Made by a program: the position numbers and the translations under genes. From an uncultured Actinomycetes bacterium (lineage in GTDB: Bacteria; Actinomycetota; Thermoleophilia; Gaiellales; Gaiellaceae): a stretch of 64,000 bases of DNA. Positions 3,505-15,445 of this stretch are shown piece after piece. The number at the start of each line of letters is the position of its first letter. Within the stretch, counting starts at the first letter, position 1. Below the pieces are notes generated by a model. That model searched no databases. It was not told the origin of the DNA and worked only from the letters and a program-made list of their open reading frames with translations. Location of the stretch: the NCBI GenBank assembly GCA_963754265.1, contig CAVWFB010000003.1, positions 151,888 through 215,887 of the forward strand, given 5' to 3'.

Positions 3505-4218
3505 TCACGGCTCCAGCGACCGGGCCAGCGCGAGCGCGCGGCTCAGCGGGATCCGCGCCTCGAGGCGATACCCCGTCCGGCCCTGCTGCCAGAGCAGCAC
3601 GTTCCCGGCCAGGCGGCCGTCGCGCTCGTACTCGACGTCGTCCGCGCCGCGATAGAAGACCGCGTGATCGCCGCCCGTGAGCCAGAGCGCGTCCACGCCG
3701 TGGACGTCGGCGATCTCGGTGCTCGTGCCCGGCCCCAGCAGCTTGTAGAAGAAGATGTGGTTCGACCGCCATTCGGTCAGGACGAGGCTGCTGCCGTACA
3801 CCGCGGTCACCGCCACCCCGCCCGCGCCGTCGCGATCGACGAAGACCCGGCTCGGCTTCCCGACGCCCTTCGGAAGACGTAGCGCGAATCTCGCCTCCCG
3901 CCTTGCCTCGTCGAGCGACACTCGCCGCCCCAGGTCGAACGCGGAGATTCGCGCGCTCGGCGGGAGCTTCTCGACCCGCTCGACGTGGACGCCGGGGATG
4001 AAGTCGAACCAGTCGCGGAACGCGCTTCGCGCCGAGGGAGAGAACACCGCCGTCAGCGCAACCGCCAACGCGGCCAGCGCAACGGCGAGGCCTACCTTCG
4101 GCCACGGACGGCCGCGGCGGCCAGGGAGGTCGCGGACGACCGACTCGCGGAGGCTCGGCGTCGGCGGGAACGGGTACGCGCCCACCGCGGCCTCGAGCCG
4201 CTGCTCGAGCTCGGTCAC
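3505..4218 (-). CDS. putative anti-sigma factor / sigma-associated single-pass membrane protein
   Basis: 237 aa with one TM ('VGLAVALAALAVALTAVF'). Its start overlaps the stop of the upstream ECF sigma gene by 4 nt (translational coupling). I recognised no enzymatic motif. Confidence 0.55.
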   Translation of the reverse strand: MTELEQRLEAAVGAYPFPPTPSLRESVVRDLPGRRGRPWPKVGLAVALAALAVALTAVFSPSARSAFRDWFDFIPGVHVERVEKLPPSARISAFDLGRRVSLDEARREARFALRLPKGVGKPSRVFVDRDGAGGVAVTAVYGSSLVLTEWRSNHIFFYKLLGPGTSTEIADVHGVDALWLTGGDHAVFYRGADDVEYERDGRLAGNVLLWQQGRTGYRLEARIPLSRALALARSLEP

Positions 4219-4772
4219 GCCGGTCCCTCCAGCTCCACTCGCAGCCGCTCCAGTGCGCGAAAGACGCGCATCTTGACCGCGCCGCGGCGAACTCCGAGCG
4301 CCGCCGCGGCCTCCTCGTCGGTGAGTCCGAGGAAGAAGCGCCCGATCACCGCGAGCCGCTCATCCGGACGCAGGGCTGCGATAGCGGCGAAGAGCTCCTC
4401 GCGCTGCTCGAGCTCGAGGACTGCCGCCTCGGGCGGCGGGGCCGCGCCGCCCGAGACATCTGCGCCCGCCACACGTCTCGTGAGCCCCTCCCGGCGGGAC
4501 CTCGCCCGCACCCGGTTCCGCGCCTCGTTGCCGACGATGCGCAGCAGCCAGGGCCGAAACGGCGAGCCGCGCCGGAAGCGCCCCAGCGCGCGGTATGCCT
4601 TCACGAACCCGTCCTGGGCGGCTTCCTCGGCCTCCGCGGCGTCGTGGAGCACCGCGTAGGCGACCCGGAAGGCGATGTGTTCGTGCATCTCGACGAGCGC
4701 TCCATACGCTCCCTCGTCACCTCCACGCGCGAGATCGAGGAGCTCTGACTCCGGCAGCGGTCGGCCCACCAC
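4215..4772 (-). CDS. ECF-type RNA polymerase sigma-70 family factor
   Basis: 185 aa. Region 2-like 'AEEAAQDGFVKAYRALGRFRRGSPFRPWLLRIVGNEARN' and region 4-like 'EEAAAALGVRRGAVKMRVFRALERLR'. Confidence 0.85.
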   Translation of the reverse strand: MVGRPLPESELLDLARGGDEGAYGALVEMHEHIAFRVAYAVLHDAAEAEEAAQDGFVKAYRALGRFRRGSPFRPWLLRIVGNEARNRVRARSRREGLTRRVAGADVSGGAAPPPEAAVLELEQREELFAAIAALRPDERLAVIGRFFLGLTDEEAAAALGVRRGAVKMRVFRALERLRVELEGPA

Positions 4773-5523: not shown

Positions 5524-6393
5524 TTGACGGTCGTGGGTCTCCTTCGGTTCCTCCTGGCCGCGGTGCTGCTGGCTTCAGCCGTGGCGAAGCTCGCCGCGGG
5601 CCGCTCCGGCCGCGAGGCGCTCCGCTCGTACGGGCTCGAGTCCGCGCGAGCACGCGACGCCCTCTGGGGCGGAGTGATCGCCGCGGAGACCGCCGTCGCG
5701 GTCGGGCTCGCGGCCGACGTCCCGGGCGCCGCCGGAGCGGCCGCGACCTTGCTCGGGATCTTCGCGCTTGCGCTGGCGGTCGCGATTCGCCGCGGCCGGG
5801 CGGGCGCGCCCTGCGGATGCTTCGGCGCCGGGTCGCGGATCGGCTGGCCCGCCCTCGCCCGGACGGCGTTCCTGGCAGTGGTCGCCGCCGCCCTCGTCTT
5901 CCTCCCGGACACGAAACCCTCGACCGAGGCGTGGCTCGGCATCGGCCTGGCCGTGGCGCTGGTCGGGCTGGCCGCACTCTCCGTGGGCCTGCTCGCACTG
6001 GCCCGGGAGCTCGGGGAGCTTCGCCTCGCGATCGCGCCGCAGGCCGCGCTCTCGCTGGACCACGAGGGGCCGGAGGTCGGCGGGCGCGTCGCCCTGATCC
6101 AGCGCTTCGAAGGCCGAGCGCCGTTCGCAATCGCGGTCTTCACCTCCGCGGGCTGCGCGCTCTGCCGGGCACTCGAGCCCTCGCTGCGGCTGGTGGCCAA
6201 CGATCCCGAGGTGGAGCTCGAGCTCTTCGACGAGGAGGTCGACGCCGAGGCCTGGTCGTCGCTGGCGATACCTGGCAGCCCGTATGCGGTCGTGCTCGGC
6301 CGGGACGGCGAGGTGCTCGCAAAGGGCACGTTCAACTCGCTGTTCCAGCTGGAGAGTCTCATCGCGCACGCGACCGGGCCCGTGGGTGCCTGA
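5524..6393 (+). CDS. MauE/DoxX-type membrane domain fused to MauD-like thioredoxin-fold domain
   Basis: Four hydrophobic helices carry the 'APCGCFGAG' motif typical of MauE. The C-terminal domain has 'FTSAGCALCRAL' (CxxC). The start is uncertain (TTG 5524 or GTG 5533). The upstream part of track ORF 5233.. is shadow frame over the divergent M14 gene. Confidence 0.7.
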   Translation: MTVVGLLRFLLAAVLLASAVAKLAAGRSGREALRSYGLESARARDALWGGVIAAETAVAVGLAADVPGAAGAAATLLGIFALALAVAIRRGRAGAPCGCFGAGSRIGWPALARTAFLAVVAAALVFLPDTKPSTEAWLGIGLAVALVGLAALSVGLLALARELGELRLAIAPQAALSLDHEGPEVGGRVALIQRFEGRAPFAIAVFTSAGCALCRALEPSLRLVANDPEVELELFDEEVDAEAWSSLAIPGSPYAVVLGRDGEVLAKGTFNSLFQLESLIAHATGPVGA

Positions 6394-6955
6394 GCTGAGC
6401 CTCAGCGAGGCCGTCGCCGCGTCGACCTCGCGCCGAGGGTTCCTCGCGCGGGCGGGGCGGCTGCTCCTCGGCGTCAGCGGCGGGGGCTTCCTGGCCGCCG
6501 CCCTGCGCGCCCAGAAGGCCGAGGCCTACCACTTCTGCGGCCACATCTACACGACCGGCTCGTGCCCCCACCCTGTCGGCCTGCCCAGGATCGACCGCAA
6601 CGGCTTTCCGCTGCGGGCTGTGGACGGGAAGCCCGTCGACGACCTCGGGCGGCAAATCGACGCGGTCGGCCGGCCCGTGGATCCCCGCGGCGAGCTGCTG
6701 CGCGATCCGGACGGAAACCCGCTCCCGCCGGCGCCGCGCACGCGCGTCTGCACGGCGGCCGGACGCGAGTTCGGCTTCCGCCCCCAGATCGACGGCGCCT
6801 GGTACCGGTGCTGCAACGGCCACGTGCGCAAGCTCGTCGACTGCTGCGGCGCCGTCCGGAACCGGATCAACGGCGATGCCGCGCTCACCGGCTACTGCTA
6901 CAGCGGCCGGCGGGTGTTCTGCGTCATGTACTACGACACGAAGATCAAGTGCTGA
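6386..6955 (+). CDS. Tat-exported Cys-rich protein resembling methylamine dehydrogenase light chain (MauA-like)
   Basis: GTG 6386 overlaps the upstream stop by 8 nt. Twin-arginine signal 'TSRRGFLARAG'. The mature part has 10 Cys, with 'YHFCGH..GSCPHP', 'AWYRCCNG', 'DCCG' and 'VFCVMYY' (compare MauA 'AYRDCCG', from memory). Confidence 0.65.
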   Translation: MPELSLSEAVAASTSRRGFLARAGRLLLGVSGGGFLAAALRAQKAEAYHFCGHIYTTGSCPHPVGLPRIDRNGFPLRAVDGKPVDDLGRQIDAVGRPVDPRGELLRDPDGNPLPPAPRTRVCTAAGREFGFRPQIDGAWYRCCNGHVRKLVDCCGAVRNRINGDAALTGYCYSGRRVFCVMYYDTKIKC

Positions 6956-8380
6956 CCGCCGCGCTGTCGCTGACAGGCCTGCTCGTCGGCCTCGCGGGCG
7001 CCTGGTCGCCCTGAAGCCTCTCCATGGTCGGCACCGTGGGTGCCGCTCGCCAGGACGGACGACGGGCCTTCGCGCTGACGGCGGCGAGCATTCGCGACCG
7101 GGCTCGCGCTCGGCGCGACGCTCGTCTTCGGGGCTCTCGGCCTGCTCGGTGAGACCGTGCACTCGCGCGTCCTCGTCGTCTCCGCCGTAGCGGTCGCCGC
7201 CGCGGCGATCCTGAGCGACGCGGCCGGCCTGCGTGTCCGGCCGCAGATTCGCTTCCAGGTGCCCGAGCGCTGGCGCCGGACCATGCCTCTGCCCCAGGCG
7301 CTCTTCCTCTACGGCCTTCTGCTCGGAGCCGGCCTCACCACGTACGTGCCCGCGACCGCCGCCTGGGCGCTCCCCGCGCTCGGGCTCGCGGTCGGCGACG
7401 TTGCGGCGTCGCTCGCAATCGGGCTCGGCTTCGCCGTCGGGCGCGCGCTGCCGGTGCTGCTGCTCGCGGTGCGGGGCGAGGAGACGGCCCTCGCCGAGCG
7501 GCCGCAGGGGCTGCGCGCGCTGCGCGTGCTGATCGCCGCCTCGCTCGTGCTGGCGCTGGCCGCGGGCGAAGCGAGGGCCGCGGTCACGGTCGCCACGACG
7601 GGGGTCGACCCGAGCGCCGCCGACGTCGAGCTCGCCTGGCAGCAGCCGGGCGTCGGCGGCTTCCTGCTCCGGAACGGGGTCAAGACTCGGCTTCCGGGGA
7701 ACGACCCGGCGATCGGCGGCGCGCTCGTGGCCTGGCACGACGGCCCGAACGTCACCGTCGCCTCCCGCGACACGCTCACGCCGATGCTCCAGGAGCCGCT
7801 CGCGGGCGTCCAGAAGCTCGCGCTCACGGACCGCTGGCTCGTCTGGCGCAGCGGTTTGCAGATCCGCGTCCAGCCGTTGAGCGACCCGACCCGAAGCGCA
7901 CTCGTGGTCAAGGCCAAGCGGTTCGCTGAGCTCGGCCGGCCGGCGCTCGACGGCGATCTCGTCGTCTACCACTACGCCACTCCCTCCGGCAGCTGGCTGA
8001 CGACCGTGAACGTCGCCACCGGAGCCAGGGACCGGGTGCGCTACGCGAAGGACGCGCAGCTGCTCAACCCCTCCCTGCTCGGCGGGAGCCTCCTCTACGT
8101 ACGCACCTCACGCTGCGCGCAGGAGCTGCGCCTCGGCCCGCTGCACGGCGGCAAGGAGCGCGTGCTCTACAAGCTCCCGCCGCTCGCCGGCCAGGACCGC
8201 GGGCACGAGCCGGGCCACACGGAGCAAGGCGAGCGCCTGCCCTGCCCGCACCGGCCGAAGCCGACCACGCGGATCCTCTGGACGACCGCCCTCTCGGCCA
8301 CGACCGCGTACGTGACGATCCTGCGTCCCCGAAGGGGCGGCAGGACAACACCTACCCTGATCGCCGTGGCCCGGAGATAA
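6949..8380 (+). pseudogene. polytopic (CcdA/MauF-like) membrane protein with a beta-rich C-terminal domain; in-frame TGA 7012-7014 plus a frame break near 7090
   Basis: GTG 6949 overlaps the mauA-like stop. It reads 'VLTAALSLTGLLVGLAGAWSP', then TGA, then 'SLSMVGTVGAARQDGRRAFALTAASI'. The TM-like sequence 'ATGLALGATLVFGALGLLGETVHSRVLVV...' continues in the next frame into track ORF 7157..8380. The C-terminal ~270 aa is beta-strand rich (TolB/propeller-like impression). Confidence 0.5.
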
Positions 8381-8384
8381 GAGA

Positions 8385-8414
8385 TGGAGGGCCGCTGCGG
8401 CGTGCGGCCCTCCA
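8385..8414. terminator. GC-rich hairpin between convergent genes (possible bidirectional terminator)
   Basis: 'TGGAGGGCCGC' (8385-8395) and 'GCGGCCCTCCA' (8404-8414) form a perfect 11-bp inverted repeat with an 8-nt loop. It lies between stop 8380 (+) and stop 8430 (-). Confidence 0.5.
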
Positions 8415-8429
8415 CGCTTCCCTACCCGA

Positions 8430-10994
8430 TCAGAGCAGCTGATCCTCCCACTGGTTCTGGTCGGTCTTGCCCTTGTTCTTGACGTCAGTGTTACCAGTCG
8501 ACGTCGCTGTCTGCGTCGCGTTGCTCCCGCCGTCGTAGATGTTCCCTCCGGCTACGGAGTGCGGCGCGTTGCCGTTGACCGCGTTCTGGTCGCTGATGCC
8601 GAACCCGAGCGCGAGCTGTTTCGTCTTGGACAGCTGGACCCCGGCCTGGAATCCACCCGCACCGCCGCATCCGGCCTTACAGCCGGAGCCGCCGATGTTC
8701 TGGTGGAGGTCCTGGTCCTGGTCCGTCTTCGCCTTGTTCTTGACGTCCGCATTCGCGGACGAGGTCGCCGTCTGCGTCGCATTGCTCGGGCCGCCGGAGA
8801 TGTCCTTTCCGGCTTCCGAGCTGGGCGCGTTCGAGTTGACGGCGTTCTGGTGGCTCTTCGCGATGCCGAGCGCACCCTGCTTCGTCTCGGCGCTCTGGAT
8901 CCCGAGCTGGAACCCACCCGCGCCGCCGCAACCGACGAGGCAGCTGCCCTTCCGGCTGTCCCTCTTGGCGTCCGGGATGCCGCCGGAGCCGCTGTTGTTG
9001 CCGCTGCCCTTGTCGTTCGGGCTGCCCTTGCTGGCCTCTTTGCCGAGCGTCCCGCTCCGGTTCGCGTTGCTGCCGAGCGTGTCGGTCGTCCGGCTGTTGC
9101 CGAGCGGATAGGCGGTGCGGCTGTTGCCGGTCGGGCTGACCGAGCTGTTGTTCCCGGTGGGGCTGACCGAGCTGTTGTTCCCGGTCGGGCTGGCCGTGCG
9201 GCTGGGCGAGCCGCTCTTGCGGCCCTTCTTGCCGTACTTGCCGCTCTTCCGGTCATCCTGACGGCCGACCTTGTCCTTCTTTGCTCCCTCGCAGGAGCAC
9301 AGGACCGGGGCCTTCATGTCGCTGTTGCCGATGTTCTGCTCGAGCCCCTGGTCCTGATCGGTCTTGGCCTTGTTCTTGACGTCGGTGTCCGCGGTGGACG
9401 TCGCCGTCTGCGTGGCCGAGCTCGGGCCGGAGTTGATGTCCCCTCCGGCGATCGAGACGGGCGCATTGCCGTTGACCGCGTTCTGGTCGCTGAGCGCCGC
9501 GCCGATGGCCGCCTGATTCGTCTCGGCTTTCTGCACACCGAGCTGGAAGCCGCCGGGACCGCCGCAACCCACGTAGCAGCCTGAGCCGCCGATGTTCTGG
9601 GTGAGCGTCTGGTCCTGGTCCGTCTTGGCCTTGTTCTTGACGTCCGCGTTGGCGGTCGAGGTCGCCGTCTGCGTGGCGTCGCTCGGGCCGGAGGTCACGT
9701 TGCCCCCGGCGATCGAGACCGGCGCGTTGCCGTTGACGGCGTTCTGGTCGCTCTTCGCGAGACCGAGCGCGAACTGGTTCGTCTCGGCCTTCTGGACGCC
9801 GAGCTGGAACCCACCTGCGCCTCCGCAACCGGCGGAGCAGGAGTCGTCCTTCTGAGGCGTTCTCCCCTCGCAGGAGCAGGACTTCTCGTCGCTGCCGATG
9901 TTCTGGTTCAGCGTCTGGTCCTGATCGGTCTTGGCCTTGTTCTTGACGTCGGTGTCCGCGGTGGACGTCGCCGTCTGCGTGGCCGAGCTCGGGCCGGAGG
10001 TGATGTCACCGCCGGCGATCGAGACGGGCGCATTGCCGTTGACCGCGTTCTGGTCGCTCTTCGCAAGTCCGAGCGCCAGCTGCCCGGTGTCGGCCTTCTG
10101 CACACCGAGCTGGAAGCCGCCGGAACCGCCGCAACCCGCGTAGCAGCCGGAGCCGCCGATGTTCTGGTTTTGCGTCTGATCCTGGTCGGTCTTCGACTTG
10201 TTCTTCACATCAGCGCTGGCCGTCGAGGTCGCCGTCTGCGTCGCCGAGCTCGGGCCGGAGTTGACGTTTCCGCCCGCGATGTTCACGGGCACGTTGGCAT
10301 TCACTGCGTTCTGGTCGCTCTTGGCGATTCCCACTGCGGCCTGCTTCGTGTCGGCAGCCTGGACTCCAGCCTGGAATCCACCGGCACCGCCACAACCGGC
10401 CTTGCAGGAACCGCTCCCACCGATGTTCTGGTTGAGCGTCTGATCCTGATCGGTCTTCGACTTGTTCTTGACATCCGTGTTGGCCGTCGAGGTCGCCGTC
10501 TGCGTCGCCGAGCTCGGGCCGGAGTTGACGTTTCCGCCCGCGATGTTCACGGGCACGTTGGCATTCACTGCGTTCTGGTCGCTCTTGGCGACCCCGACGG
10601 CGATCTGCTTGGTGTCGGCTGCCTGGACCCCGGCCTGGAATCCACCCGCACCGCCGCATCCGGCCTTACAGCCGGAGCCGCCGATGTTCTGGTTCAGCGT
10701 CTGATCCTGATCGGTCTTGGCCTTGTTCGAGACGTCAGCATTCGCGTTCGAAGTGGCCGTCTGTGTGGCCGAGCTCGGCCCGGAGGTGATGTTCCCTCCG
10801 GCGATCGAGACCGGCACGTTGGCGTTGACCGCGTTCTGGTGGCTCAGCGCCACGCCGAGCGCTCCCTGAGCGGTCGACGCGGCCTGGACCCCGGCTTGAG
10901 CACCACCGGGACCACCGGAGCCGTCGGCGAACGCCGCGGGAGCGATGGCGAGTGCGGCAAGCACTACGGCCACGCCCATTCCTATGGCTTTCAT
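8430..10994 (-). CDS. secreted 854-aa repeat protein: eight 88-aa Q/N/T-rich repeats joined by C-x3-C nodes (uncharacterised)
   Basis: Strong SD 'AAGGAGAAGGG' precedes ATG 10994. Signal peptide 'MKAIGMGVAVVLAALAIAPAAFA'. There are eight copies of '..GGFQxGVQ..S(D/H)QNAVNxNxPVxIAGGN..SGPSxATQTATS..DVKNKxKTDQDQ..QNIGGSGCxxGC'. The track ORF start at 11072 is upstream of the SD. Confidence 0.85.
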   Translation of the reverse strand: MKAIGMGVAVVLAALAIAPAAFADGSGGPGGAQAGVQAASTAQGALGVALSHQNAVNANVPVSIAGGNITSGPSSATQTATSNANADVSNKAKTDQDQTLNQNIGGSGCKAGCGGAGGFQAGVQAADTKQIAVGVAKSDQNAVNANVPVNIAGGNVNSGPSSATQTATSTANTDVKNKSKTDQDQTLNQNIGGSGSCKAGCGGAGGFQAGVQAADTKQAAVGIAKSDQNAVNANVPVNIAGGNVNSGPSSATQTATSTASADVKNKSKTDQDQTQNQNIGGSGCYAGCGGSGGFQLGVQKADTGQLALGLAKSDQNAVNGNAPVSIAGGDITSGPSSATQTATSTADTDVKNKAKTDQDQTLNQNIGSDEKSCSCEGRTPQKDDSCSAGCGGAGGFQLGVQKAETNQFALGLAKSDQNAVNGNAPVSIAGGNVTSGPSDATQTATSTANADVKNKAKTDQDQTLTQNIGGSGCYVGCGGPGGFQLGVQKAETNQAAIGAALSDQNAVNGNAPVSIAGGDINSGPSSATQTATSTADTDVKNKAKTDQDQGLEQNIGNSDMKAPVLCSCEGAKKDKVGRQDDRKSGKYGKKGRKSGSPSRTASPTGNNSSVSPTGNNSSVSPTGNSRTAYPLGNSRTTDTLGSNANRSGTLGKEASKGSPNDKGSGNNSGSGGIPDAKRDSRKGSCLVGCGGAGGFQLGIQSAETKQGALGIAKSHQNAVNSNAPSSEAGKDISGGPSNATQTATSSANADVKNKAKTDQDQDLHQNIGGSGCKAGCGGAGGFQAGVQLSKTKQLALGFGISDQNAVNGNAPHSVAGGNIYDGGSNATQTATSTGNTDVKNKGKTDQNQWEDQLL
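8433..10919 (-). repeat. tandem coding repeat, period 264 bp (88 codons), 8 units
   Basis: The motif 'S(D/H)QNAVN' recurs 8 times. The opposite-strand shadow ORFs 10198..10443 and 10462..10704 are near-identical and offset by 264 nt, so some units have high DNA identity. Confidence 0.85.
9120..9200 (-). repeat. 27-bp tandem minisatellite (about 2.6 copies) inside the repeat-protein insert
   Basis: 'GGGCTGACCGAGCTGTTGTTCCCGGT(G/C)' occurs at 9133-9159 and 9160-9186, with partial copies flanking. It encodes 'SPTGNNSSV SPTGNNSSV SPTGNS'. Confidence 0.8.
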
Positions 10995-11020
10995 CCCTTC
11001 TCCTTGGTAGTTGGGGCGAC

Positions 11021-11096: not shown

Positions 11097-11855
11097 TCAG
11101 CCCGGATGCCAGGAAGGGAGAACGATGCGCCTCGGCTTCCGGAAGGCCAATAACGGAAGCAGACGAGGCAAGAAGTGCAAAGCGAAAATTGCGAGGACGC
11201 CCAAGAGCGTCGCGAATAACAGCGGCACCGGCGCGTTCTGGCCGCCGGCCTGGCCGGATGAGGACGCATCCGGTCGCGGCGGCATCGGCCCGGGAAGTCG
11301 CGGCGGCTGCGGCGGAGCCGAGCGCTCTGGGCGAGGCGAGGCCTTGGCCGGGGCGGCCGGCGAAGGCCTCGCCGGGGAGGGGGTAATCGTGTCGCTCGAG
11401 CCGTCGTACCGAAGACCGCCGACGACCGGTCGGGGCCTGGCGTGCGAAACGGGAACCTGTGCACTCCGGACGTGTGCCTTCTTCTTCACGCGCGCGTGGC
11501 GCGCTGGAGCAGGCGGCGTGCGTTCCGGGGGACCGAGCTCGCTGCTGTCCGCGGCGACGGCCGGAATCGCCGGCCCTCCGTCGACGCTCTGGGCCGCGAG
11601 GGGTGCCGCAGCGGCGGCGTGAGCCTCCGCTGTGGCGGTGTGGGCAAGCGTCAGAGCTTGCTCGACGATCGCGTTCGCAGTCTCCTGGGCCTGGACCGGC
11701 TGTTGCTGCGTGGCGCCGAGCGCAGAGGAGACGATCCCGTCGACTTGCGCGGAGAGATCGGTCGGTACGGATTCGCCCGCCGCCCGCGCGGAGCCGACGT
11801 GCAGGTTTCCGCCGACGAGAACGGCCACGACGAGCACGAAGACCCGAGCGAACAC
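11097..11855 (-). CDS. Pro/Ala-rich protein with an N-terminal signal/anchor and a C-terminal TM helix (hypothetical)
   Basis: Hydrophobic N-terminus 'VFARVFVLVVAVLVGG..ARAAGE', a Pro-rich middle ('PPQPPRLPGPMPPRP') and a C-terminal TM 'PLLFATLLGVLAIFALHFL' with a basic tail. The start is uncertain (GTG 11855; alternatives TTG 11912 or ATG 12005). Confidence 0.5.
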   Translation of the reverse strand: MFARVFVLVVAVLVGGNLHVGSARAAGESVPTDLSAQVDGIVSSALGATQQQPVQAQETANAIVEQALTLAHTATAEAHAAAAAPLAAQSVDGGPAIPAVAADSSELGPPERTPPAPARHARVKKKAHVRSAQVPVSHARPRPVVGGLRYDGSSDTITPSPARPSPAAPAKASPRPERSAPPQPPRLPGPMPPRPDASSSGQAGGQNAPVPLLFATLLGVLAIFALHFLPRLLPLLAFRKPRRIVLPSWHPG

Positions 11856-11892
11856 GTTGCAACCGGGGGTGAAATCGGCTTGGCTGCCGGAA

Positions 11893-11933
11893 TTTCGTCC
11901 AGATTCGTCCAATTGGCCGCTCCGATTCGTCCA
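11893..11933. promoter_or_regulatory. triple direct repeat (A/T)TTCGTCCA in a lower-GC intergenic stretch
   Basis: 'TTTCGTCCA' at 11893-11901, and 'ATTCGTCCA' at 11903-11911 and 11925-11933. These lie between stop 11948 and the likely start of the next minus-strand gene. Confidence 0.3.
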
Positions 11934-11947
11934 ACCGGCCTGCCGGG

Positions 11948-12967
11948 TCACGACTGACGTCCCCAGGCGGTGCGAACGGGCCCGATCCAGGTCGACGAGA
12001 GCCACAGCAGGAGGGCGCCGAGCAGCGCGATCACCGTAACGGTCAGCAGGCCGGCCCCCGCGGCCCGCTGACCAGCCGGCGGGGAGACCGCCGGAAGAGG
12101 CGCGTGCGCGACGCGAGCGAAGACGCTCGTCGCCCGCTGGAGGCCGCCGGCATGCTCGGAATGCCGCTTCCCGATCGGCTTGGTGTCCGGCGCCCGGGCG
12201 GCCGCCGCCGGAAAACCGGCGGTATGAGCGGCTGCGGCTCCGCTGACCGGCCGCCCGAGCGACTTTTCCGCCGTCATGTCGGCGGGACGGGACGCGGGCG
12301 CGCTCCGCCGAGGCGCCGGCTGGCGGCTGCGATCGTTCGCAGCCGTCTTGCCCTGCGCGGCCTCGGCTGGCGCGGCTCCGGGCCGCAGAGCATGCGCTCG
12401 AGGTACTGCAACCCTCGGCGTGTTCCCCGCGGGCATTGCGCCCGTTTGAGACGTGGAACTTCCATTGTTTGCCCCGACTCCAACGCCGACGACGTTCGTC
12501 TGCGAGATCGGGCCGTCGTTCCCCGGGCTGTTGATCCGGATGGAGACGACGATGTTGACGGGATGCGACTGCGTTCCCTCGCCCGTCGCCGCTGCGTCTT
12601 GCCCGGTCGAGGCCTGCTGTGCTCCGCCGAGCTCGTCCGCGCCCGCCTGCGAGGTGTCGCTGCCGTTTCCGGCTCCGACGCCCACGACGGCGACGTTCGA
12701 CTGGGAGATCGCACCGTTGTTCCCGGGGCTGTCGATCCGCACCGAGATGACCATGTTGGTGGGCGAATCCTGCGTAGCCACGCCGTTTGCGGCCGCCGAC
12801 TGGTCCGTCGTGGCGGTCTGGGCCGGAATTTCGATCGGCGTGACGAGGTCGTCCGCAGCCGCGGTGCCGGCCACGGCGAGCGGATACAACGCACAGATCC
12901 CGGCCACCAGGCCGAAACGCGCTCGCCAGCCGAGATGGCGCAGATGGGGCGAGGAAGTCGGATGCAT
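11948..12967 (-). CDS. secreted, C-terminally membrane-anchored protein with two 'RIxSPGNxGxISQxNV' modules (hypothetical)
   Basis: ATG 12967. Signal peptide 'RFGLVAGICALYPLAVAGTAAA'. The modules are 'NMVISVRIDSPGNNGAISQSNVAVVGVGAGNGSDTSQ' and 'NIVVSIRINSPGNDGPISQTNVVGVGVGANNGSSTSQ'. A Pro/Ala-rich spacer follows, then a C-terminal TM 'LLTVTVIALLGALLLWL'. Confidence 0.75.
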   Translation of the reverse strand: MHPTSSPHLRHLGWRARFGLVAGICALYPLAVAGTAAADDLVTPIEIPAQTATTDQSAAANGVATQDSPTNMVISVRIDSPGNNGAISQSNVAVVGVGAGNGSDTSQAGADELGGAQQASTGQDAAATGEGTQSHPVNIVVSIRINSPGNDGPISQTNVVGVGVGANNGSSTSQTGAMPAGNTPRVAVPRAHALRPGAAPAEAAQGKTAANDRSRQPAPRRSAPASRPADMTAEKSLGRPVSGAAAAHTAGFPAAAARAPDTKPIGKRHSEHAGGLQRATSVFARVAHAPLPAVSPPAGQRAAGAGLLTVTVIALLGALLLWLSSTWIGPVRTAWGRQS

Positions 12968-14300: not shown

Positions 14301-15380
14301 TTGCGCTTGCGCTTCGTGATCCTCTCGGGCGTCATCGTCTCCGCAGCCGCCGCCGCCGGCCCGGTCGATCTCTTACACCCTGAGCGGAACGACGGGCGAC
14401 AACGGCTGGTACCGCGTCAAACGTCGGCATCGTCTGGGTCGTGAACGGACGGGATGGCGACGCGGCGGCTGCGTCTCGACGACGCTGCTCAGCGACACCA
14501 ACGGCAGCACCGCAGTCCTGCACGGCCACCGACGGTACGATCGAAACGTCGTCAGTCCGGTCACGATCAAGATCGACAGGGTGGCACCGCCTCGTCACGA
14601 CCGCGTCTCCGGCGCGGGCGCCCGACTACAACGGCTGGTACAACCACCCGGTCGCGTTCTCGTTCGCGGGCACCGACGGCGGCTCGGGGCTCGCGAGCTG
14701 CTCGGTAGCGACCTACAGCGGCCCGGACAACGGCAGCGCGGCGGTGGGCGGAAGCTGCCGCGACAAGGCGGGCAACACCGGCTCGAACGCGTTCGGCCTC
14801 AGCTACGACGCGACGGCCCCGACGCTGAGCAAGGTCGAGGTGGCGAGCCGCGCCGCCTCGGCGCTCGTCCACTGGCAGTCGACGAGCCCGGCGGACACGA
14901 TCGTCGTCCACCGGTCGGCTCGCGGGAACAAGGCGGACCCGACGGTGTTCCGGGGCGCCGCCTCGAGCTTCGCCGACAAGAAGATCCAGCGCGGCCTCGA
15001 GTACGTCTACTCGCTGCAGTCCTACGACCAGGCGGGTAACGCGTCCAAGGTCGTCTCGGCGGTCGCCCTGCCCAAGGTGCTGACGCTCCGCAAGACGCCC
15101 TACACCCCTCGGGCCGCGGCCAATCCGGTGCTCCGCTGGGACGCCATCCGCGGCGCGACGTACTACCACGTCCAGCTCTTCCGGGGAAAGAAGCGGATTC
15201 TCGCCGCCTGGCCGAGCAGCGAACGAGCTCACGCTTCCGGCGGCGTGGCGCTGGGCCGGCCATCGCTACAAGCTCGGCCCCGCCCGCTACCGCTGGTACG
15301 TGTGGGAGGGCATCGGCAAGCGCTCGTTCGCCCGCTACCGGACTCTCGGCAGCGCAGCCTTCATCGTCCCGAAGCGGTAG
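14301..15380 (+). pseudogene. secreted Ig-like ('NGWY' / OmpL47-like) surface protein gene with multiple frame breaks
   Basis: The signal-like '(M)RLRFVILSGVIVSAAAAAGP' (TTG 14301) is followed by protein-like segments that alternate between frames: 'ISYTLSGTTGDNGWYRV', 'NVGIVWVVNG', 'GCVSTTLLSDTNGSTAV', 'SCTATDGTIETSSV', 'SPVTIKIDRVAPP', then 'VTTASPARAPDYNGWYNHPVAFSFAGTDGGSG...'. The C-terminus 'NELTLPAAWRWAGHRYKLGPARYRWYVW..FIVPKR' is in a third frame, ending at TAG 15378-15380. Confidence 0.55.
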
Positions 15381-15445
15381 ATGCGTAACGCTCCGCCCGC
15401 AGCCGCGACTGAGGGTGGACAATCACGGGGTCGCGGAGGGATGAC

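Follow-up and report, generated by a model that had tools for sequence, protein, structure and literature searches.

The window analysed here is the whole stretch of 64,000 nucleotides of contig CAVWFB010000003.1 (positions 151,888 to 215,887 of the forward strand; assembly GCA_963754265.1), which comes from an uncultured actinomycete of the Gaiellaceae (Thermoleophilia, Actinomycetota). On its minus strand lies a gene for a secreted protein of eight tandem repeats, which an earlier note on this DNA had put forward as a candidate amyloid-like or surface-fibre subunit. GC content of the window is ca. 70%, and GC content at third codon positions (GC3) of the repeat gene, in frame, is 0.87. The gene and its parts, in window coordinates and in the order of translation, are as follows.

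11000..11005, minus strand: Shine-Dalgarno sequence AAGGAG, five nt before the ATG at 10994, read directly from the sequence
8430..10994, minus strand: whole gene of the 854-aa secreted eight-repeat protein, stop codon included
10926..10994, minus strand: signal peptide, aa 1-23, MKAIGMGVAVVLAALAIAPAAFA; cleavage site judged by eye, after AFA and before D; pattern kept in homologues
10671..10916, minus strand: Repeat 1 (aa 27-108), hidden Markov model (HMM) E = 1.7e-33
10656..10670, minus strand: Node 1, CKAGC
10407..10655, minus strand: Repeat 2 (aa 114-196), regular-expression split and HMM
10392..10406, minus strand: Node 2, CKAGC
10146..10391, minus strand: Repeat 3 (aa 202-283), regular-expression split and HMM
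10131..10145, minus strand: Node 3, CYAGC
9894..10130, minus strand: Repeat 4 (aa 289-367), regular-expression split and HMM
9825..9893, minus strand: Node 4, expanded, SDEKSCSCEGRTPQKDDSCSAGC (CxC plus Cx3C)
9579..9824, minus strand: Repeat 5 (aa 391-472), regular-expression split and HMM
9564..9578, minus strand: Node 5, CYVGC
9327..9563, minus strand: Repeat 6 (aa 478-556), regular-expression split and HMM
8928..9326, minus strand: Node 6, expanded (aa 557-689), with CSC, a 116-aa insert (8943-9290) and CLVGC
9122-9196: 27-nt tandem repeat within Node 6 (Tandem Repeats Finder)
8682..8927, minus strand: Repeat 7 (aa 690-771), regular-expression split and HMM
8667..8681, minus strand: Node 7, CKAGC
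8433..8666, minus strand: Repeat 8 (aa 777-854), tip divergent, ending ...DQNQWEDQLL
8384..8415, minus strand: terminator-like hairpin of 12 pairs, 9 of them G-C, beginning 15 nt past the stop codon

Both ends of the gene are as the earlier note had read them, with a strong ribosome-binding site, a signal peptide and a protein that stops right after its last repeat. The N-terminus, MKAIGMGV..., is common to the protein and its closest metagenomic homologues. Judged by eye, the leader MKAIGMGVAVVLAALAIAPAAFA, followed by DGS, has the form of a Sec-type signal, with a basic n-region, a hydrophobic core and an AxA cleavage site, and the same pattern is present in homologues. At the other end, the last repeat unit closes 2 aa before the C-terminus, and the Trp-containing tail of Repeat 8 is kept in homologues. 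The C-terminus carries no membrane or wall anchor; in particular, the protein lacks an LPXTG-like motif followed by a hydrophobic helix and a basic tail, and neither a sortase motif search in the window nor an Rfam search gave a match.

A split by regular expression places the starts of the eight units at aa 27, 114, 202, 289, 391, 478, 690 and 777. The earlier count of eight copies thus stands, but the period is 87 aa rather than 88 (a single unit has 88), in agreement with the 261-nt period (81-82% matches) reported by Tandem Repeats Finder. A Cys pair is present at each of the seven inter-repeat junctions, as the earlier note had stated. Five are plain C-x3-C, and junctions 4 and 6 are enlarged to CSCEG...C-x3-C; the low-complexity insert at junction 6, previously put at about 110 residues, in fact spans 116 aa between C568 and C685, is rich in Ser, Gly, Lys, Asn, Thr and Pro, and holds 2.8 copies of SPTGNNSSV. 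Overall, Gly, Ala, Ser, Asn, Thr and Gln make up 64% of the protein, which has an even number of Cys residues (18).

No library gave this protein a family name, and the earlier note had recognised none. Neither the whole protein, a single repeat, its close homologues nor ten distant homologues matched a family in Pfam or NCBIfam, where the scans returned only low-complexity noise (SMYLE_N, Bacteroid_pep, RAP80_UIM). A sequence search of the PDB with profiles A1 and A3 gave no match at E<=10, and we found no description of the repeat family in the literature. A word-indexed protein search returned 284 relatives, carrying five to nine repeats and all annotated as hypothetical, the few with an organism name being metagenome-assembled genomes (MAGs) of Gaiellaceae. 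An exhaustive profile search of 1.84 billion cluster representatives gave only 261 matches at E<=0.001, nearly all of the named ones being Thermoleophilia MAGs. The family is therefore narrow. Its distant members have repeats of ca. 82 aa of the type 'GIQxxxQxAxNxQ...SNxNxPIRVxSPGxxGxVxQSN...NxNxTxQxxxQ', alignable over the entire unit, with CGC, CC or CxC at the nodes.

When one genome per GTDB species was scanned with profile A1, the repeat gene, which looks single-copy, turned up in at least 121 of these species-level genomes. The matches listed are all MAGs. Below class level, they belong to Gaiellales/Gaiellaceae, Thermoleophilaceae, Solirubrobacterales/Solirubrobacteraceae and Conexibacteraceae, with one record from Polyangia; other genomes among them are labelled just Actinomycetes, Actinobacteria or Actinomycetota. 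The closest locus among these matches (L012) encodes a protein of 88% identity. We conclude that the repeat defines an unnamed, well-conserved family restricted to soil Thermoleophilia (Actinomycetota), and the phyletic profile that the earlier note had called for is, for those of the listed matches that are named below class level and apart from the Polyangia record, one of Thermoleophilia MAGs. That record (L016, DATMZL010000015.1) is a 4.5-kb contig with a 69%-identical homologue and a neighbour, DIP2311-like, that is typical of Gaiellales; it is probably mis-binned.

Some metagenomic copies (P0001, P0002, P0004 and P0017) are nearly identical to the window protein, with 93-97% identity over the aligned part (79% for P0017). 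P0001 is of equal length (854 aa, 8 repeats; 97% identity), P0004 has 765 aa and 7 repeats, P0017 has 676 aa and 6 repeats, and P0002 is 17 aa shorter. The variation in repeat number from 8 to 7 and 6 may be natural, or else the 261-nt tandem may have collapsed during assembly.

To describe the repeat unit itself, 2,141 units were collected from all relatives and loci and aligned over 87 columns; 1,549 of these were unique (effective number of sequences ca. 500). Ten Gln/Asn positions (Q7, Q11, Q17, Q27, N31, N33, Q52, N64, Q70 and Q76) are 89-99% conserved in the unique units, a conservation compatible with parallel in-register ladders. Together with small residues they form a face that is 78-99% conserved in each half of the repeat: Q7, Q11, A13, T15, Q17, A19, A23, Q27, N31 and N33 in strand A, and Q52, A58, A62, N64, T68, Q70 and Q76 in strand B.

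Mean-field direct coupling analysis (DCA) was run on the same 1,549 units. The seven strongest pairs (25-56, 21-60, 15-66, 23-58, 21-62, 9-72 and 29-54) all lie along one of two anti-diagonals, i+j=81 and i+j=83, and combine an odd position of strand A with an even position of strand B. Since such pairs make up only ca. 34 of the 3,403 and yet contain the top seven, the contribution of chance is negligible. Along i+j=81, mean coupling was 2.09 for the conserved face versus 0.11 for the other face (background standard deviation 0.52), and the exchanges seen at coupled pairs (A.N/S.S/T.A, G.Q/V.A/A.V and G.T/S.S/A.A) compensate in volume, in the manner of a packed interior. The remaining faces of both strands are variable, polar and uncoupled. 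From the coupling pattern and the conservation taken together, we conclude that the two halves of each repeat are in antiparallel contact over ca. 29 residues, through one face of Ala, Ser, Gly, Thr and invariant Gln/Asn. The short strand-like segments of the earlier note are thereby replaced by two long strands per repeat.

AlphaFold2 (AF2), run separately from the DCA although it too exploits covariation of this sort, agrees with this strand map. A model of three repeats built from 32 close sequences had a predicted local distance difference test score (pLDDT) of 35.6, and a model of two repeats built from 61 diverse sequences reached pLDDT 56.3, with a predicted TM-score (pTM) of 0.31, so that confidence rose with the more diverse alignment. 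In both models strand A covers residues 5-33 and strand B residues 48-78, with tip segments 36-39 and 43-45 at 'PVxIAGGNxxSGP'; the Cys node occupies the inter-unit loop. Two strands packing by a conserved inward face, as in cross-beta and beta-solenoid proteins, are indicated by the DCA, with a matching strand layout in AF2. Part of the beta-solenoid-type architecture proposed earlier is upheld by the beta-rich prediction, the position-specific Gln/Asn and the antiparallel pairing. AF2 confidence is low, and Foldseek, run with the low-confidence AF2 model, found nothing in the PDB at E<=0.001 (best hit FapC, E=0.21, TM-score 0.08). A transmembrane beta-barrel was ruled out, as both non-conserved faces are polar or charged.

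The Cys nodes were surveyed at 1,724 junctions from family members. C-x3-C alone occurs at 62% of them, CxC alone at 12%, and four Cys (both motifs) at 10%; 12% have no Cys and 2% an odd number, so that at 98% of junctions the Cys residues are even in number and locally paired. In one orthologue (L058), four of seven junctions have Gly/Ser/Tyr linkers in place of Cys, with the repeats intact. Because the Cys residues pair locally and are dispensable, they are most likely local disulfide staples, stabilising and non-essential, in the base connector between what would be successive layers of the protein.

Although the window protein is anchorless, its relatives and neighbours link the family to the cell surface. 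Nine relatives (P0066, P0067, P0071, P0082, P0083, P0096, P0099, P0106 and P0115) end, after a Ser/Thr/Pro stalk, in LPF[TA]G, a transmembrane helix and a basic tail. In the window itself, the repeat gene is preceded by two further reading frames on the same strand.

11948..12967, minus strand: upstream paralogue of 339 aa, ATG at 12967 (longest open reading frame (ORF) to 13108), found with the iterated repeat HMM
12644-12823 and 12443-12625, minus strand: the two repeats of the paralogue, of 'SPGNNGxISQSN' type (repeat HMM)
11999-12052, minus strand: C-terminal transmembrane helix of the paralogue, preceded by a Pro/Ala-rich stalk
11097..11855, minus strand: intervening ORF (start uncertain, 11855 to 12005), with a hydrophobic N-terminus, Pro/Ala-rich, with a C-terminal transmembrane helix and the end FRKPRRIVLPSWHPG

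The paralogue, which also has a signal peptide, is the sole other match to the repeat HMM among the six-frame ORFs of the window (54.8 bits, E=3.7e-16). Compared with L012, its substitutions are in excess at third codon positions, and a homologue of it is found upstream of the repeat gene in 29 of the 86 loci compared. The intervening ORF shows the same third-position excess against L012 and a C-terminus whose DNA is conserved in L001; it probably encodes another anchored protein within this transcription unit. In L001, a stretch of ca. 950 bp upstream of the repeat gene (9041-10001) matches window positions 11097-12005 (minus strand); no gene was called there, and the last 15 codons, FRKPRRIVLPSWHPG, are its best-conserved DNA.

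A second kind of partner occurs in sister lineages. Directly downstream of the repeat gene, 38 Solirubrobacterales/Thermoleophilaceae loci have a gene for a protein with a 'WQxQxGCxxxC' module, a Pro-rich stalk and a C-terminal transmembrane helix, and in P0183 and P0218 this module is joined to the repeat units in a single protein. The module, 'xIQ(L/V)xWQxQ(I/V)GCxxxCxxTxQxQ' in full, has no Pfam or NCBIfam match; three to four copies, followed by a stalk and a transmembrane helix, were observed in P0183, P0218, L046 (10029-11618) and L032 (10261-11586). Adjacency in two lineages and the two fusions point to a physical partnership of the repeat protein with a membrane-anchored presenter. Thus, the surface location suggested by the earlier note is supported by sortase signals in orthologues, by the anchored paralogue upstream and by the adjacent or fused anchored partner of sister lineages.

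Several known systems can be set beside this arrangement. FapC has a Cys pair near its C-terminus and is partnered with a shorter paralogue, FapB. Like the window protein, it consists of secreted imperfect repeats with linkers of variable length between them. Its cross-beta layers correspond one to one to the imperfect repeats, and arrays of conserved Asn/Gln hold them (PMC12392863). The FapC fibril structures 9u4u and 9nqd gave no PDB sequence match at E<=10, and the two proteins differ in their units (three repeats in a Greek-key layer, as opposed to eight 87-aa repeats with two strands of ca. 29 residues) and in export: FapC belongs to the fap operon of Gram-negative bacteria, which includes an exporter of the outer membrane, while in the actinomycete solely Sec export is evident.

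The curli proteins CsgA and CsgB share with the window protein strand-turn-strand repeats with inward Gln/Asn/Ser, and their major subunit with its surface-attached nucleating paralogue can be likened to the repeat protein with its anchored paralogue. The curlin repeat (ca. 22 aa, S-x5-Q-x-G-x-G-N-x-A-x3-Q) has a different Gln/Asn spacing from the 87-aa window repeat and is devoid of Cys nodes. Chaplins of Streptomyces are secreted amyloid-forming surface proteins of actinobacteria with sortase-anchored long forms and free short ones, comparable to the window family, and their 'VPVNVCGN' is locally similar to the 'VPVN(I/V)xG(G/N)N' string of the repeat. The chaplin domain is hydrophobic and of ca. 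40 aa, unlike the polar 87-aa repeat. The kinship with chaplins and curlins suggested in the earlier note was not borne out. Curlin_rpt (PF07012) and the chaplin model (PF03777) had no match at E<=1 with the whole protein or at E<=10 with one repeat and four homologues; hhalign of A3 against E. coli CsgA (L087:4448-4900) gave a probability of 1.0% (E=0.052, 41 columns), and against an approximate chaplin sequence, 0.25% over 9 columns. No csgEFG-type genes were seen among the neighbours at the window locus or in L001-L005. The structural intuition of that note was thus broadly right, and its family resemblances were not.

A further analogue comes from an archaeon. In the sheath protein SH of Methanospirillum hungatei, beta-arches form a beta-hoop with a cross-section ca. 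9 nm long; the two sheets, ca. 10 A apart, are joined by the arches, and putative disulfides lie between neighbouring subunits (PMC10593813). SH is unrelated in sequence, with six non-identical arches, strands that are antiparallel within the sheet, a helical cap and closed rings, and it forms an amyloid-like surface structure for which nothing comparable has been observed in Thermoleophilia. LPXTG proteins of the SasG/Aap type resemble the window family in having a signal peptide and a series of beta-rich tandem repeats that varies in number; their Ser/Thr/Pro stalk and sorting signal are matched by LPF[TA]G in some orthologues but not in the window protein, and no known adhesin domain in Pfam or NCBIfam was matched by its repeats. 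By analogy, the way in which the protein may work is most like that of FapC and curli, which combine layered repeats and arrays of Gln/Asn with a shorter partner paralogue, and also like that of long and short chaplin pairs; it differs from all three in rung size, covalent nodes and phylogenetic home.

The reading that we favour, tentatively and at a little less than an even chance, is that the product is a structural protein, exported by Sec to the cell surface, whose antiparallel strand pairs are stacked as cross-beta layers and held by an anchored partner. Strands A and B of each 87-residue repeat, each of ca. 29 residues (ca. 10 nm), would be joined by the tip 'NxNVPVxIAGGNxxSGP' and pack through the conserved face, each repeat making one beta-arch and hence one cross-beta layer. 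Eight such layers, stacked in register, would give a flat two-sheet beta-solenoid with ladders of invariant Gln/Asn in its core, and polar outer faces on both sides, a construction shared with FapC and CsgA, though with a rung about four times wider. The C-x3-C or CxC nodes would sit in the short base connector, at the handover from one layer to the next. The anchorless protein may be held at the surface by the membrane-anchored two-repeat paralogue encoded upstream, or be templated on it, and its role may be in a coat, a fibre, a matrix or adhesion. We favour an arch because just one face of the strands is core-like, both other faces are polar and the same Gln/Asn recur in every repeat, as ladders would have them. 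An extended version, in which the family would be a new class of functional cross-beta material and a giant-rung beta-solenoid (87-residue, ca. 10-nm layers, about eight per subunit, with a disulfide staple at each layer junction) is templated by dedicated membrane-anchored nucleators into ribbons or sheets of a Thermoleophilia outer coat, we regard as unlikely.

Several observations weigh against the stacked arrangement. AF2 confidence is low even at its best (pLDDT 56), and Foldseek gave no significant match (best FapC, E=0.2). In-register stacking would bring Lys63, Lys65 and Lys67 of all eight repeats into same-charge ladders. The Trp-containing tail may cap the stack, which argues against open-ended, amyloid-type polymerisation. 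Of 193 multi-repeat relatives, ca. 140 have no anchor, and the protein may thus be released into the medium. The putative binding of the eight-repeat protein to the paralogue is suggested by gene adjacency, homology and two fusion proteins. The covariation would equally suit a hairpin hydrogen-bonded in plane, with its conserved face buried against something else, the couplings at i+j=81/83 then being cross-strand and diagonal neighbours of an antiparallel sheet. A DCA of two joined repeats cannot separate stacking from such a meander: it is swamped by same-position couplings, which shared repeat ancestry or homogenisation also gives, and pair 25-56 is equally present in all four intra- and inter-repeat combinations. 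The hairpin belongs to a different explanation, a monomeric, non-amyloid wall-associated adhesin or stalk in which eight in-plane hairpins form a 16-stranded meander, with a dimer partner or a ligand covering the conserved face. DSSP assigns long hydrogen-bonded strands in both AF2 models, LPXTG-type anchors with Ser/Thr/Pro stalks in some orthologues are classic Gram-positive adhesin architecture, and the conserved C-terminal tail could be a cap. We nevertheless consider an adhesin of this kind somewhat unlikely, with the identical positions of Gln/Asn in all repeats being the signature of a stacked ladder; moreover, cross-strand pairs on the exposed face are variable and charged and yet uncoupled (mean 0.11), and a single sheet leaves its only core-like face uncovered.

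Other explanations take up single features of the protein. Its composition, the low AF2 confidence and the clearly low-complexity 116-aa insert would suit a disordered secreted protein that serves as hydrated spacer or matrix filler with no defined fold, but neither ten positions per repeat that are 89-99% conserved across Thermoleophilia orders nor sharp, geometrically coherent covariation is expected of disorder, and we hold this to be very improbable. Just as improbable, in our view, is an extracellular metal-binding or redox protein in which the Cys pairs of stacked nodes coordinate a metal or shuttle electrons. The strict local pairing of Cys (Cx3C, CxC, CC) at a fixed position of the repeat speaks for it, as do the CxC and CC spacings, which are awkward for simple disulfides; it is hard to reconcile with the 12% of junctions lacking Cys and with the linkers that replace four of seven nodes in L058, there is no conserved His/Cys ligand pattern outside the nodes, and no redox or metal-handling gene is consistently adjacent in the loci compared. 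Insect antifreeze beta-solenoids have a flat Thr array with TxT ice-binding faces. The outer T51, T53, T55 and T57 of strand B in the Gaiellales subfamily ('TQTATST') might likewise stack into a flat array that binds ice or minerals, and SSATQTATS is present in all eight window repeats. The motif is not kept across the family: these positions are T in 32-35% and S in 24-25% of units and are rich in Asp, Glu and Lys in Solirubrobacterales and Thermoleophilaceae. Ice or mineral binding is the least probable of the explanations considered.

The little-known Thermoleophilia (Gaiellales, Solirubrobacterales and Thermoleophilales) are among the most abundant Actinomycetota of soil, and we found no literature on their cell surface. 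The gene described here is widespread among them, and no library names it. Should the cross-beta reading prove true, it would be the third independent bacterial repeat stack laddered by Gln/Asn, besides curli and Fap, with a much wider rung, covalent staples and an anchored partner, and would bear on amyloid structural biology, on biomaterials and on the adhesion and aggregation of Thermoleophilia in soil. If the protein is an ordinary adhesin, it would still be the first candidate for a major surface protein of this class.

The wider neighbourhood yields no functional lead in its recurrent members. A LuxR-type response regulator is found in 29 loci and a DIP2311-like helix-turn-helix protein in 27. 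An Ig-like protein with the motif 'NGWYNHPV' is encoded at window positions 14441-15388 (plus strand), and 65 of 86 loci have a homologue no more than ca. 7 kb from the repeat gene; in most loci of Gaiellales type it is upstream in divergent orientation, and in most others downstream on the same strand. The frame of this gene appears to be broken in the window: the tblastn match extends over two frames, and the C-terminal translation seems to be out of frame. Further away, positions 3505-4772 (minus strand) hold an extracytoplasmic function (ECF) sigma factor (4215-4772) and, overlapping the end of that gene, a 237-aa ORF (3505-4218) for a possible anti-sigma factor; the flanks retrieved for related loci contained no counterpart of either.

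Three genes convergent with the repeat gene occupy positions 5587-8380 (plus strand). The first, assigned via synteny with L001, L002 and L004, encodes a MauE-like membrane protein (PF07291). The product of the second (6401-6955) has 184 aa, 10 of them Cys, and a signal of the twin-arginine type (RRGFLARAG), and that of the third (7157-8380) has 407-441 aa; for these two proteins, no Pfam, NCBIfam or PDB sequence match was obtained. We considered the trio as disulfide machinery for the nodes and rejected such a specific link, as unrelated inserts intervene in L001, L002 and L004 and the trio is absent from L005 and from Solirubrobacterales loci. A by-eye resemblance of the 184-aa protein to the methylamine-dehydrogenase light chain was likewise not confirmed. 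By tblastn, the 184-aa protein recurs close to the repeat gene in 12 loci and the 407-441-aa protein in 15, all of Gaiellales type.

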